A DNA stretch of 64,000 nt, taken from NCBI RefSeq assembly GCF_041248615.1, contig NZ_CP158425.1. The stretch is one strand, 5' to 3'. Numbering within the stretch: position 1 is the stretch's first letter; each line of letters begins with the position of its first letter. Made by a program: the position numbers. Below are positions 36,001 through 42,000 of the stretch, piece by piece. The DNA is from Escherichia coli (GTDB lineage: Bacteria; Pseudomonadota; Gammaproteobacteria; Enterobacterales; Enterobacteriaceae).

Positions 36001-39000
36001 CGGGCATGCCTTCGCGAAAATCGCACCTGCTTCCCGCCGCGGTGAGCTCGCTGGAGAGCGTGACCGCCTCATTTGGCTCAAAGGTCGAGGTGTGGCTTGC
36101 CCCGAGGTCATCAACTGGCAGGAGGAACAGGAGGGTGCATGCTTGGTGATAACGGCAATTCCGGGAGTACCGGCGGCTGATCTGTCTGGAGCGGATTTGC
36201 TCAAAGCGTGGCCGTCAATGGGGCAGCAACTTGGCGCTGTTCACAGCCTATCGGTTGATCAATGTCCGTTTGAGCGCAGGCTGTCGCGAATGTTCGGACG
36301 CGCCGTTGATGTGGTGTCCCGCAATGCCGTCAATCCCGACTTCTTACCGGACGAGGACAAGAGTACGCCGCAGCTCGATCTTTTGGCTCGTGTCGAACGA
36401 GAGCTACCGGTGCGGCTCGACCAAGAGCGCACCGATATGGTTGTTTGCCATGGTGATCCCTGCATGCCGAACTTCATGGTGGACCCTAAAACTCTTCAAT
36501 GCACGGGTCTGATCGACCTTGGGCGGCTCGGAACAGCAGATCGCTATGCCGATTTGGCACTCATGATTGCTAACGCCGAAGAGAACTGGGCAGCGCCAGA
36601 TGAAGCAGAGCGCGCCTTCGCTGTCCTATTCAATGTATTGGGGATCGAAGCCCCCGACCGCGAACGCCTTGCCTTCTATCTGCGATTGGACCCTCTGACT
36701 TGGGGTTGATGTTCATGCCGCCTGTTTTTCCTGCTCATTGGCACGTTTCGCAACCTGTTCTCATTGCGGACACCTTTTCCAGCCTCGTTTGGAAAGTTTC
36801 ATTGCCAGACGGGACTCCTGCAATCGTCAAGGGATTGAAACCTATAGAAGACATTGCTGATGAACTGCGCGGGGCCGACTATCTGGTATGGCGCAATGGG
36901 AGGGGAGCAGTCCGGTTGCTCGGTCGTGAGAACAATCTGATGTTGCTCGAATATGCCGGGGAGCGAATGCTCTCTCACATCGTTGCCGAGCACGGCGACT
37001 ACCAGGCGACCGAAATTGCAGCGGAACTAATGGCGAAGCTGTATGCCGCATCTGAGGAACCCCTGCCTTCTGCCCTTCTCCCGATCCGGGATCGCTTTGC
37101 AGCTTTGTTTCAGCGGGCGCGCGATGATCAAAACGCAGGTTGTCAAACTGACTACGTCCACGCGGCGATTATAGCCGATCAAATGATGAGCAATGCCTCG
37201 GAACTGCGTGGGCTACATGGCGATCTGCATCATGAAAACATCATGTTCTCCAGTCGCGGCTGGCTGGTGATAGATCCCGTCGGTCTGGTCGGTGAAGTGG
37301 GCTTTGGCGCCGCCAATATGTTCTACGATCCGGCTGACAGAGACGACCTTTGTCTCGATCCTAGACGCATTGCACAGATGGCGGACGCATTCTCTCGTGC
37401 GCTGGACGTCGATCCGCGTCGCCTGCTCGACCAGGCGTACGCTTATGGGTGCCTTTCCGCAGCTTGGAACGCGGATGGAGAAGAGGAGCAACGCGATCTA
37501 GCTATCGCGGCCGCGATCAAGCAGGTGCGACAGACGTCATACTAGATATCAAGCGACTTCTCCTATCCCCTGGGAACACATCAATCTTACCGGAGAATAT
37601 CGTTGGCCAAAGCCTTAGCGTAGGATTTCGCCCTCTCCCGCAAACGACCCCTTTATTGTAGGTGGGCCAGTTGGTGATTTTGAACTTTTGCTTTGCCACG
37701 GAACGGTCTGCGTTGTCGGGAAGATGCGTGATCTGATCCTTCAACTCAGCAAAAGTTCGATTTATTCAACAAATCCACGTTGTGTCTCAAAATCTCTGAT
37801 GTTACATTGCACAAGATAAAAATATATCATCATGAACAATAAAACTGTCTGCTTACATAAACAGTAATACAAGGGGTGTTATGAGCCATATTCAACGGGA
37901 AACGTCTTGCTCGAGGCCGCGATTAAATTCCAACCTGGATGCTGATTTATATGGGTATAAATGGGCTCGCGATAATGTCGGGCAATCAGGTGCGACAATC
38001 TATCGATTGTATGGGAAGCCCGATGCGCCAGAGTTGTTTCTGAAACATGGCAAAGGTAGCGTTGCCAATGATGTTACAGATGAGATGGTCAGACTAAACT
38101 GGCTGACGGCATTTATGCCTCTTCCGACCATCAAGCATTTTATCCGTACTCCTGATGATGCATGGTTACTCACCACTGCGCTCCCCGGGAAAACAGCATT
38201 CCAGGTATTAGAAGAATATCCTGATTCAGGTGAAAATATTGTTGATGCGCTGGCAGCGTTCCTGCGCCGGTTGCATTCGATTCCTGTTAGTAATTGTCCT
38301 TTTAACAGCGATCGCGTATTTCGTCTCGCTCAGGCGCAATCACGAATGAATAACGGTTTGGTTGATGCGAGTGATTTTGATGACGAGCGTAATGGCTGGC
38401 CTGTTGAACAAGTCTGGAAAGAAATGCATAAGCTTTTGCCATTCTCACCGGATTCAGTCGTCACTCATGGTGATTTCTCACTTGATAACCTTATTTTTGA
38501 CGAGGGGAAATTAATAGGTTGTATTGATGTTGGACGAGTCGGAATCGCAGACCGATACCAGGATCTTGCCATCCTATGGAACTGCCTCGGTGAATTTTCT
38601 CCTTCATTACAGAAACGGCTTTTTCAAAAATATGGTATTGATAATCCTGATATGAATAAATTGCAGTTTCATTTGATGCTCGATGAGTTTTTCTGATAGT
38701 TAGTCTTTGTAGAGACACAAACCTGAAATTCCGGACACCGCGCTTCAGGACATCTCCCTGGACGCCGATATCTGGCAGTATCCGGACGGTACTATCGAAC
38801 GCCGGGCCAACGGTACTCCCCTGCCCTTTATGACTGACGACCGGCTATTTCACCCACGCACTTCTCCATGAAATTTAGCATCGTCGCGGTTAATGTCGAA
38901 AATTTGCCACCTGACGTGGTTGGCATCGAGGGTGAAAACTGCCGTGGCGAGGGTGTTCTCCTCATCCGGATCGTCGGCAGCCAGCCGGTAAATTGGCAGT

Positions 39001-42000
39001 TCTGCGTCATGGGTATCTGAGAGAATGGTTTTTGCCGCCGCGGCGTCAAACGGAGGTTGCGTTTCCCGCCACTGCACGAGGCGTAACTGCCGCGACGCTG
39101 AACTGTCGGTAACGATCTGCTCAACGCCAGCCAGTGCCGCATGCACCAGATGGTTGGCATGCCCGGTTACCGTCGTCAGGGGTAGAACGGAACAGCCTTG
39201 ACCGGTGGCCTCAACGCTGAACAGCCGCGCATCGCCCAGCTGCCCGAGCGTATGGTGAAACGCCCCGGATCGCGGCTGGCCGGTAAGTATAGTGATGGCC
39301 TCGTCGAGGGTGTTCGCATTCAGCGAGGCGCGAGCCAGGATCTGACGCGGTAATCCCTGCGGACGATACACTGCACGGATGTTATTCACCGTGTTAACGA
39401 TACCTTTTTCATTTACCGCAAAGGTGTGGCCGCAAATCGACCCCGGATAGGCAAAACTCGTAAAGCTCAGACCGCGACTCGGAGTAATGGTAGCCAGCAA
39501 GCATTCATCCCGTAACTGAGGAAAACCGTCTTCATTATGCGCGATAATCCGCTCGCCTGCGGCGTTTACCCCGGCCACCGTCGTACAGCCATCCGACGTT
39601 GAGCGCACCAGATCGCCACGGCAGTTCCAGGCAAAGACCTGATCAACAGTGGCCTCCAGTCCCTGCGCCAGCCCCTCCAGCTCCTGCCAGATGTGCGGAT
39701 AATGCCGCTGCACCTCGGCGCGCATTAACCGGGTCTCAGGGGATGCCTGCAGGGTCATCACGGGGTCGTTTGCGGGAGGGGGCGGAATCCTACGCTAAGG
39801 CTTTGGCCAGCGATATTCTCCGGTGAGATTGATGTGTTCCCATCCGAGCGGCGAAACATGGGCCAAGAGATCGGGCGATAGCAGCTTTCCATCGCGTTTC
39901 TGGTTTGCAACGACCTCGCCGAGCTTCATGGTGTTCCAGAAGATGATGATGGCGGCGAGCAGATTCATGCCGGCGATGCGGTAATGCTGGCCTTCGGCGG
40001 AACGGTCGCGGATTTCACCGCGGCGGTGGAAGCTGATTGCCCGCTTCAGCGCATGATGAGCTTCGCCTTTGTTGAGCCCGATCTGGGCACGCCGTTGGAG
40101 TTCGGCATCCAGAATCCAGTCGATCATGAACAGGGTGCGCTCGACGCGACCGACTTCCCGCAGGGCTGTCGCGAGCTCGTTCTGCCGCGGATAGGAGGCG
40201 AGTTTCCGCAGAATCTGGCTTGGCGCGACGGTCCCGGCAGCAATGGTGGCGGCGATGCGCAGGATGTCGGGCCAATTGCGCTCGATCATGGCTTGGTTGA
40301 CCTTTCCGCCGATCAACGCTCGCAGGTGCGCCGGGGCGGCCGACGGATTGAACGCGTAGAGCCGTTTGGATGGCAGGTCGCGGATGCGCGGAGCGAACCG
40401 GTAGCCGAGAATGGCACATGCGGCAAAGACGTGATCGGTGAAGCCGCCCGTGTCGGTGAACTGCTCGCGGATATGGCGTCCAGCATCGTTCATCAGCAGG
40501 CCATCGAGGATGTAAGGCGCTTCGCTTGCCGTTGCAGGAATCACCTGGGTTGCGAACGGCGCATATTGGTCGGAGACGTGGCTATAGGCTTTCAGGCCCG
40601 GGGTATTGCCATATTTCGCGTTGACCAGGTTCATGGCCTCACCTTGCTCTGTAGCGACGAAGAACTGTCCGTCGCTCGAAGCCGACGTGCCCATGCCCCA
40701 GAACCGGGCCATGGGTAACGCTGCCTGTGCCTCGACCACCATGGCCAGCGCCCGGTCATAGGCTTCGCCCTCGACATGCCACCGTCCAATGCGGATCAAT
40801 TCCCAGAAGGTGTGGGTGTTTGTCGCATCCGCCATTTTGCGCAAGCCGAGGTTGATCCCTTCCGCCAAGATAACGTTCATTAGCCCGATCCGGTCAGCGC
40901 AGGGTGCTCCTGTGCGCAGATGGGTGAACGCTTCGGTGAAGCCGGTCGCCGCATCCACCTCCAGCAGGAGATCGGTGATGCGCGTGGGCGGGATCTGCTT
41001 GTAGAGATCGAGCACCAGATCTTCGGCGCCTGTCGGCGCGGCGGCTTCGAGTTTCTCGATATGCAGAACGCCGTTTTCAATCGACCCGCCCGGGATCGTG
41101 CCTGCGCGAGCGGCACGGCCAAGCTCGCGCAACCGCATGTCGAGGCGAGCTTGCCGGTCTGCCAGCCATTCCTCCGGCCGCAATGGCACAGCGAGACGAC
41201 CGCCTTCCGCGATGGATTGTGCCGGAACGAGTGCGTGTTTCAGATCGCCATAGCGCCGGGACCTAGTAAGCCAGACATCTCCGGAGCGGAACGCATCGCG
41301 CAGATGGAACAGCACCGCGATCTCCCATAGGCGAGCGTCGCCAGCCCTCTGGGCCCGAAGGTGGCGATGCCATTTCGAGCTGGGCCGCAAGAAGCTGGTC
41401 ATCGCGGCATCGTTCAAACCGGTACGAAGGGCCGTCACCGCTTCCAGAAGCGGCAGTGCAACGGGCGCAGCTCGCAGATCGAGCAGGCGCAACATGCGTG
41501 GAGCGTATCGGCGGAAGCGGTGATAACCGTCGAGCACATGATTGAGCGGATCGTCGGCCATGGTGGCGGTCAGCCTGGTTGCCATTGCAACAAGGGTTTT
41601 TAAGCCGTCCCACCCTGACCCACTCGCGATGACATCGCCCAGCGGCTGGCCATCATCCTGTGCATCGACCAGGGCGCCCCCGATCTCGGCGAAGGATTTC
41701 AGGGTGTCACGCACCACCCCCGCTTCGTCTGCGACCTTTGCATGGCAAATACGCTCCGAAGCACGGTAGAGACGGCCGACGATCCGGTCGTGGGTTTCGA
41801 CCACTGCGTCGGCCAACATCGCCTGCCATTCCGAGACGCAAACAGCCAAGATCGCAAGCCGCCTGTCCTCCGGGAGATCGCGCATGCCGTCGGCATAATA
41901 CCGTTCACCCTGCCTGCGCAGACGAGTCACCCGATGGGCAGGAACGCCGGCAAGCAGATCCTCGGGGAGATCGATGCGTTGCAGATATTCGAGCCGGTCG

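Follow-up and report, generated by a model that had tools for sequence, protein, structure and literature searches.

A truncated C45-family gene beside aph(3')-Ia in Escherichia coli: probably a dead remnant of Klebsiella michiganensis DNA captured with aphA1 and cut by Tn5393

Our subject is an open reading frame (ORF) in a 64,000-nucleotide stretch of Escherichia coli DNA (RefSeq assembly GCF_041248615.1, contig NZ_CP158425.1), which as a whole we call the window. The ORF occupies 38850-39761, runs for 303 codons from a GTG that is followed by an ATG one codon later, and lies between the kanamycin-resistance gene aph(3')-Ia (aphA1) and one end of the streptomycin-resistance transposon Tn5393. 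Matching plasmid records carry it as a coding sequence (CDS), WP_000174819.1, a 'C45 family peptidase' of 302 amino acids (aa) that begins at the ATG. An earlier note on this DNA had pointed to a GC-rich ORF at this very place, and correctly so: GC content is 58.8% (63.8% at third codon positions) against 44.4% (40.1%) for aph(3')-Ia; the strand, which the note did not give, is minus. The immediate surroundings, given in the order of the window (contigs labelled L are those compared below), are these:

37652-37776, no strand assigned: terminal fragment (125 bp) of an IS903-group (IS903B-like) insertion sequence (IS), with its end 104 bp ahead of the aphA1 start codon; its last 2 nucleotides (nt) are ambiguous with native DNA
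37777-37880, plus strand: apparent K. michiganensis DNA upstream of aphA1 (104 bp) with the promoter motif TTGTGT-17-TACATT; identical in L002 and L009
37881-38696, plus strand: aph(3')-Ia/aphA1 (271 aa), an allele of the L002 lineage, from the ORF listing and plasmid annotation
38697-38709, no strand assigned: junction filler of 13 nt, TAGTTAGTCTTTG, delimited by comparing the window with L002, L009 and L003; also in chromosomal L002
38710-38849, no strand assigned: apparently native K. michiganensis intergenic DNA (140 bp) downstream of the C45 gene, matching L003, L008, L009 and L010, which carry no aph at that position
38850-39761, minus strand: apparent 5'-truncated C45/AAT-family (Ntn-hydrolase) gene, corresponding to codons 38-340 of its K. 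michiganensis parent
39762-39842, no strand assigned: left 81-bp inverted repeat (IRL) of the right-hand Tn5393 copy, the tip of which is the truncation point

The ORF translation matches the Pfam family AAT (PF03417; E=7e-36, 124.4 bits against a cut-off of 23.2) and the NCBIfam family C45_proenzyme (NF040521; E=4.3e-70, 236.6 bits, cut-off 85). It also keeps the Gly-Cys self-cleavage motif DG-C-TT, which is invariant across alignments of 13 and 18 family members and in which Cys59 equals Cys96 of the full-length parent and aligns with G102-C103 of isopenicillin N acyltransferase (IAT). Judged by these matches, the ORF belongs to the C45/AAT family of self-processing Ntn-hydrolases. An AlphaFold2 (AF2) model of the full-length parent (rather than of the fragment) scored 88 in predicted local distance difference test (pLDDT) and 0.90 in predicted template-modelling (TM) score, and Foldseek placed the isopenicillin-N acyltransferase structures 2X1C, 2X1D and 2X1E on top (TM 0.76-0.79, E about 1e-19), followed by acid ceramidase, NAAA, bile-salt hydrolases (BSH) and penicillin V acylase (PVA). 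An Ntn-hydrolase fold is thus predicted for the parent protein, and the label 'Ntn-hydrolase-like' in the earlier note holds on both counts, profile matches and modelled fold. With the C45 type enzyme in MEROPS, acyl-CoA:isopenicillin N acyltransferase from Penicillium chrysogenum, the bacterial parent shares the family hidden Markov model, the fold, an alignable N-terminal motif (GxPFEIG) and the Gly-Cys site, albeit at about 18% identity; the window copy differs further in lacking the first 37 residues, and so is an incomplete proenzyme.

That loss makes the ORF, on comparison with its relatives, a genuine 5'-truncated gene. The NCBIfam match spans profile positions 42-312 of 313 only. A search with the 303-aa translation, which the earlier note had proposed as a check, returned more than 1500 relatives and led to a 340-aa K. 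michiganensis gene, 98-99% identical, as the parent; the best relative (P0001, 340 aa) is 98% identical across 100% of the ORF, and nearly all of the 120 relatives listed are 337-344 aa long. All of the 12-17 homologues aligned begin 37 residues earlier than the ORF, and this N-terminus, MKKIxIxGSxFxxGxxLGxFGRxAWxxKLxxxxLWQTV in the family alignments, is conserved among them and missing from the window. The earlier note took the ORF for a probable gene fragment, a view that would fall if the ORF had a proper start and were full length in homologues; the late entry into the profile, the earlier starts and the greater lengths of the homologues uphold its suspicion. What is missing amounts to 37 conserved alpha-chain residues that precede the Cys in a complete proenzyme, within which the AF2 model of the parent has a strand (residues 2-8) and a helix (residues 10-27), both at pLDDT 94-97. 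At the DNA level, the gene break coincides exactly with the tip of the Tn5393 inverted repeat: the first codon of the ORF (39761-39759), equivalent to parent codon 38, directly adjoins IRL at 39762. Native sequence at the break point reads TGGCAAACG|GTGATGACC and the missing 5' part comes to 111 bp, ending in ...TGGCAAACGGTGAT, while the window has a complete repeat tip, ...ACGACCCC, with codon 38 following directly. A whole tip at the junction argues for transposase action rather than random breakage.

Where the gene came from was addressed by a scan with one genome per species. Here, Klebsiella michiganensis DSM 25444, the type strain (contig L010 below), has a full-length C45 gene with 99% aa identity to the ORF; K. 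indica follows at 86% and Pantoea/Enterobacter at about 70%. In nucleotides, the ORF differs at 6/912 positions from contigs L002, L003 and L009 and at 13/912 from the type strain. Gene order was compared among the contigs that encode P0001 exactly. The commonest arrangement (L003-L008) runs C45, BPL_N, TetR, a 165-aa gene, MFS, Fe-ADH and LysR, with no aph in that stretch; L009 has C45, BPL_N, TetR, aph and SnoaL; and L002, a 252-kb contig, has ABC transporter, C45 (340 aa), aph (271 aa) and SnoaL, with C45 and aph convergent. By blastn, window positions 37775-39761 and L002 form a single collinear block of 1987 bp at 98.4% identity (99.3% in the C45 part, 99.5% in aph). Even the 13-nt filler between the aph stop codon and the native DNA downstream of C45 is identical in the two, and the 27 bp at window 37775-37801, upstream of aph, are also native sequence in the type strain, which is aph-less there. 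No other blastn match was found between L002 and window 36501-44000, so the L002 locus is free of the IS903, IS26 and Tn5393 sequence of this region; on either side of its aph segment, the L002 flanks are 98.4-98.9% identical to DSM 25444. Near-identity to the chromosome thus continues without a break across aphA1 and its flanks, as in a K. michiganensis aphA1 passenger, and ends at termini of mobile elements, the IS903B-like one at 37776 and the Tn5393 IRL tip at 39762. On these comparisons the plasmid block 37777-39761 (1985 bp) is a single piece of an L002-type K. michiganensis chromosome. Since aph, spacer and C45 are collinear with one chromosomal-type contig, the C45 fragment would be DNA of the source chromosome that was captured along with aphA1. 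The 153-bp spacer between aph and C45 was itself considered as another gene fragment, its plus-strand frame being open, but aph-less chromosomes show ORFs of at most 62 aa and no called gene there, and we treat it as intergenic.

This provenance agrees with the literature. Moran and Hall (J Antimicrob Chemother 2025, PMC12670165) identified K. michiganensis as the origin of aphA1, with a C45 peptidase gene beside it, so that the source of aphA1 and its C45 neighbour is already known. They also name the TTGTGT-17-TACATT motif upstream of aphA1, describe TnaphA1-pIE545 with a passenger made up of aphA1, the C45 peptidase gene, glnQ and partial glnP that is 99.25% identical to K. michiganensis YZUMF202001, and report a configuration (R478/FDAARGOS_647) in which a 1540-bp deletion took out the peptidase gene (PMC12670165). 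Going by the published description, the gene content of the window fits the pIE545/YZUMF202001 configuration: both have aphA1 followed by the C45 gene from the K. michiganensis chromosome, the same promoter motif and an IS903-group element at the aphA1-proximal boundary. They differ in that pIE545 has an uncut C45 gene together with glnQ and partial glnP, with IS102 on both sides and the IS at a stated 116 bp from the start codon, whereas in the window the IS903B-like end lies 104 bp from it and is cut by the right inverted repeat (IRR) of Tn5393, and C45 is cut at codon 38 by IRL. The 1985-bp form of the window is not in Table 1 of PMC12670165. Our literature search for the exact structure found the C45 peptidase gene linked with aphA1 in that paper only, and a survey of IncHI2 plasmids (PMC6206278) does not discuss a C45-aphA1 structure. 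The window form is an obvious relative of the published aphA1 passengers, and what novelty is left lies in a capture lineage that is possibly uncatalogued and in the reshaping by Tn5393.

Our reading, for which we would give a probability of roughly 85%, is that the ORF is a dead, 5'-truncated remnant of a K. michiganensis C45 gene that was captured together with aphA1, cut by Tn5393 and spread by linkage. The remnant is most likely non-functional; we infer loss of function from the missing conserved strand and helix and from the want of expression signals. No consensus sigma-70 promoter came up ahead of the ORF in a promoter scan, whose lone promoter-like match lies inside the 3' end of the ORF at chance frequency, and no purine-rich ribosome-binding sequence precedes the GTG/ATG, the upstream DNA being a C-rich repeat (...CCCCCTCCCGCAAACGACCCC). 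Two substitutions are unique to the plasmid-lineage ORF and both are non-synonymous; one of them, H132Y, falls on a site that is His in 11/12 other aligned homologues. Most likely, then, the remnant spreads only through its physical linkage to aphA1 and strAB.

Several points pull the other way. A case for relaxed selection cannot be built on two unique substitutions, all 303 codons remain open and the catalytic Cys is kept. Upstream of the ORF, and on its strand, is the transposase gene tnpA; no terminator is predicted between the two, which are in frame, separated by the TAG stop of tnpA and 11 codons (39762-39797, inside the inverted repeat); the shared frame is probably chance (1 in 3), but read-through transcription with weak re-initiation and translation of the ORF could occur. 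L002-L009 were assigned to K. michiganensis from some 7 kb of sequence with about 98.4% identity to the type strain, together with the names given in their sources. As for Tn5393, no 5-bp target duplication borders the block, the flanks being TTTAT and ATCAC and the ends coming from two partial Tn5393 copies, and neither the reciprocal junction (CAAACGGTGAT plus inverted repeat) nor the missing 5' 111 bp was found in PLSDB, complete E. coli genomes or JGI metagenomes. Hence, a simple insertion of Tn5393 into an intact C45 gene is not demonstrated, and the order of events and the intramolecular route proposed below are inferred. The same negatives bear on the earlier note, which saw in the ORF the original target of Tn5393: the complete repeat tip at the break speaks for this and the lack of duplication and reciprocal junction against it, which leaves the C45 gene a likely, albeit unproven, target.

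If the truncated ORF were expressed after all, by read-through from tnpA and re-initiation at the GTG/ATG, a useful activity (an amidase or acylase, for instance) might aid the persistence of the module. Besides the open frame and the tnpA orientation just mentioned, such a role could draw on the survival of the Gly-Cys nucleophile motif with most invariant residues and on the CDS annotation in matching plasmid records. We nonetheless hold it to be very improbable. The N-terminal strand and helix that were lost are conserved from bacteria to the fungal enzyme and confidently modelled, a promoter and purine-rich ribosome-binding site of the ORF's own were not found, and H132Y hits a near-invariant site. 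Moreover, other aphA1 modules, which hold 88-174 bp of the ORF or none of it (LysR type), are at least as widespread (more than 1200 plasmids), and 100% identity among copies points to recent spread, not to purifying selection.

Two further alternatives concern origin and fare worse still. The earlier note held the GC-rich ORF to be probably of different source from aph(3')-Ia; it would then be a fragment from another organism into which Tn5393 first inserted and which aph joined later. Despite a real GC difference of 14 points and a Tn5393 tip that adjoins the fragment, we find this scarcely credible, given that both genes are contiguous in K. michiganensis-like L002, with aph, spacer and C45 collinear at 98.4% including the filler, that L002 is native K. 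michiganensis on both sides, and that the literature has the two genes side by side in K. michiganensis chromosomes and in pIE545 (PMC12670165). To our minds this is a caution, too: a sharp GC contrast between adjacent genes of a resistance island is no proof of different donors. Nor is there more than a slim chance of the reverse direction, a plasmid-born aph-C45 adjacency that chromosomes like L002 acquired secondarily: aph is AT-rich relative to its chromosomal surroundings and absent from the type strain and most sampled K. michiganensis contigs (the L003-L008 configuration), but the chromosomal C45 gene is full length in the same neighbourhood (aminotransferase, ABC transporter) with and without aph, the L002 locus has none of this region's IS903, IS26 or Tn5393 sequence (blastn against window 36501-44000), the truncated copy is the plasmid one, and at the native position the type strain still has what a deletion left of aphA1, which dates aph in the species to before that deletion.

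On our reading of a dead remnant, the fragment is of little importance itself and has its value as a provenance tag: the widespread aph(3')-Ia module that carries it would descend from a K. michiganensis configuration with aphA1 beside the C45 gene, and the tag separates this lineage from the commoner LysR-flanked aph(3')-Ia modules. As to annotation, '5'-truncated pseudogene' would be a better label for the CDS that matching plasmid records call 'C45 family peptidase'. About 140 PLSDB plasmids from Escherichia, Salmonella, Klebsiella and Shigella, IncHI2 and small 46-kb plasmids among them, match the form cut by Tn5393 with 100% identity along the full query; the form also occurs in 112/5426 complete E. 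coli genomes, almost always on plasmids. A chromosomal parent in E. coli was considered on account of 45 records at 90-95% identity in a first search; with the ORF alone as query, however, all matches are at least 99% identical and 2/196 places are chromosomal. The weaker matches therefore lie outside the ORF, and there is no diverged parent in the E. coli chromosome.

Other sequences around aphA1 also bear on K. michiganensis. In the type strain (L010:14950-15071) there is no intact aphA1 but a deletion scar, in which a TGATG microhomology links upstream sequence with the final 18 bp of aphA1 (compared with window 37777-37805 and 38676-38696). The sequence that follows the scar, TCAGAATTGGTTAATTGG..., adjoins aph(3')-Ia, with 100% identity, in over 1200 PLSDB plasmids of the LysR-flanked type, for example in the IS903B composite of pGW1; the commonest plasmid context of aph(3')-Ia would therefore also trace to a K. 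michiganensis configuration like that of the type strain. The stop codon of aphA1 is the exact point at which the LysR-side, TetR-side and C45-side configurations part (two have TAA, the C45-side one of the window TGA; window 38694-38709, L002:7153-7165, L009:9405-9413, L010:~15005). The nested deletions share a fixed endpoint at the stop with no IS present, and the C45-side configuration has the 13-nt filler. A second, more divergent case of C45-aph adjacency is L011 (JQCU01000494.1), 18.7 kb with ABC transporter, full-length C45 and aphA1, 97.8% identical to L002 and filed under 'Acinetobacter idrijaensis MII', likely through contamination or mis-binning.

How the block came to lie where it does can be considered from the two Tn5393 copies on either side, whose parts, other than the IRL above, are:

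34260-34605, plus strand: 3' part of tnpR of the left copy, identical to 43075-43420 of the right copy; IS26 cut at 34259/34260
34606-35837, plus strand: IS1133 (1232 bp, TAG duplication), in the left copy only; an IS1133-family transposase is annotated in plasmid p14408_M1
35906-37545, plus strand: strA-strB (aph(3'')-Ib, aph(6)-Id) of the left copy, found as ORFs; coordinates from a 100%-identical plasmid annotation
37571-37651, no strand assigned: right 81-bp inverted repeat (IRR) of Tn5393, after strB and facing outward toward aphA1
39795-42680, minus strand: tnpA of Tn5393 (961 aa, Tn3 family), its end lying inside IRL
42806-43450, plus strand: tnpR of the right copy and 33 bp beyond, without IS1133; the copy is broken at 43451 by other IS sequences, then ISKpn12

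Inverted repeats of Tn5393 are 81 bp long, and those at 37571-37651 and 39762-39842 are complementary at 77/81 positions. The tnpR reading frame at 42806-43420 is divergent from tnpA, and a 33-nt repeat (35838-35870 equals 43418-43450) marks the uninterrupted IS1133 site in the right copy. An IS26 transposase is annotated immediately upstream of the left tnpR part in a matching plasmid. Both copies point the same way, and their sequences overlap, 34260-34605 being equal to 43075-43420. A single Tn5393 insertion with target duplication was considered and dropped: the flanks TTTAT and ATCAC are unlike, and the partial copies overlap and differ by IS1133, which makes them two copies and not one permuted copy. 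Tn5393 is described with the gene set tnpA, tnpR, IS1133, strA and strB (PMC10333595). In the right copy, an IS fragment follows 33 bp past the IS1133 site, then ISKpn12 and, farther along, aac(3)-IIe and blaTEM-1; this calls to mind Tn5393g, a variant with ISKpn12 that PMC10333595 lists. The native target (GGCAAACGGTGATG, L002:6096-6110) and the inner side of the repeat tip (CGCAAACGACCCC, 39762-39775) both contain the 7-mer GCAAACG, offset by 5 nt, which may be coincidence.

A course of events may be envisaged that starts from one of the natural configurations of the K. michiganensis chromosome, in which some 150 bp separate the C45 gene from a convergent aphA1. From its place 104 bp upstream of aphA1, an IS903-group element would then have carried the block of aphA1, spacer and C45 onto plasmids, a step proposed by analogy with the published IS102-bounded TnaphA1-pIE545 (PMC12670165). 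Transposition of Tn5393 would have set the IRL tip between C45 codons 37 and 38, with loss of the gene head, and the block 37777-39761 would have ended up between the outward-facing ends of two directly oriented Tn5393 copies. Two routes to this state are conceivable. Tn5393 may have inserted independently into the IS903 element and into the C45 gene, with the outer parts lost thereafter. Alternatively, replicative transposition in an intramolecular deletion mode, which needs no target duplication, may have produced a circle of Tn5393 plus the block that later recombined homologously into a resident Tn5393 or strAB. The latter would also explain why the same block lies beside a different strAB context (repC-sul2-strA-strB) in pSE08-00436-1. 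We tentatively suggest, as a possibility that we rate below an even chance, that the delta-IS903/aphA1/delta-C45 structure, with its IS903-type boundary at -104 and not IS102 at -116, goes back to an additional capture of aphA1, separate from those already described (pIE545, R478 and PTn2680), with a chromosome of the YZUMF202001/L002 type as the source, and was then flanked by Tn5393 via deletion-mode intramolecular transposition. If so, a circular 'Tn5393 + aphA1' intermediate could enter any replicon with Tn5393 or strAB through homologous recombination, and would account for the block in strAB contexts of both the IS1133 type (the window) and the RSF1010 repC-sul2 type (pSE08-00436-1).

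At the aphA1-proximal boundary, the outward-facing IRR cuts the IS903B-like terminus, and window 37651-37776 is 98.4-99.2% identical to the IS903B ends in pGW1 (L026). The terminal repeat of the window reads GGATTTG... in place of GGCTTTG.... An IS903-type terminus sits at the identical nucleotide, 104 bp upstream of aphA1, in the window (37758-37776) and in pGW1 (L026:2085-2103), yet the IS orientation is opposite and the aph alleles are from different lineages; the common boundary at -104 could reflect repeated insertion into a hot spot or an unrecognised rearrangement. In its 104-bp upstream sequence and the position of the IS903-type end, the window resembles the IS903B-bounded aph(3')-Ia-LysR-FeADH module (pGW1, pEC-IMP), with which we group the short aphA1 transposons Tn903, PTn4352 and PTn2680. 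The comparison with Tn903 uses its presumed sequence and the passenger length of 980 bp (104 + 816 + 60) from PMC12670165. The pGW1-type module differs from the window in its downstream side, which is the LysR/Fe-ADH side as in type-strain L010, without C45, in aph nt 62, 80, 714 and 815, and in the reversed IS. A hybrid aph allele with a Tn903/pGW1-type left and an L002-type right part, which could have accounted for the common -104 boundary, was rejected: the window has the L002 state at nt 62, 80, 714 and 815, at all four of which the pGW1 and L009 alleles differ, and the rejection reaches as far as these single-nucleotide differences allow, the identical 104-bp upstream stretch being uninformative. 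Overall, the window aph allele follows the L002 lineage from end to end, differing by 4 nt from L002 and by 12 nt from L009. Its product (WP_000018321.1) has two non-synonymous changes, I101L (window 38181, aph nt 301) and C137S (window 38289, aph nt 409), which none of the four chromosomal-type or pGW1 alleles compared shows.

Co-captured, truncated and inert origin markers of this kind have counterparts in K. pneumoniae DNA around blaSHV (in IS26 pseudo-compound transposons) and Kluyvera DNA beside blaCTX-M (background in PMC12670165), which differ from the window in genes, source species and mobile elements. The window itself is part of a multiresistance plasmid of IncHI2A type, and E. coli p14408_M1 (NZ_LT599829.1, 96001-121000) matches window bases 1-25000 with 100% identity. 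Upstream of the region described lies a sul3-type class 1 integron (aadA2-cmlA1-aadA1-qacL-sul3-mef(B)-IS26), and p14408_M1 has about 1.3 kb extra relative to the window, upstream of the IS26 at the integron end.

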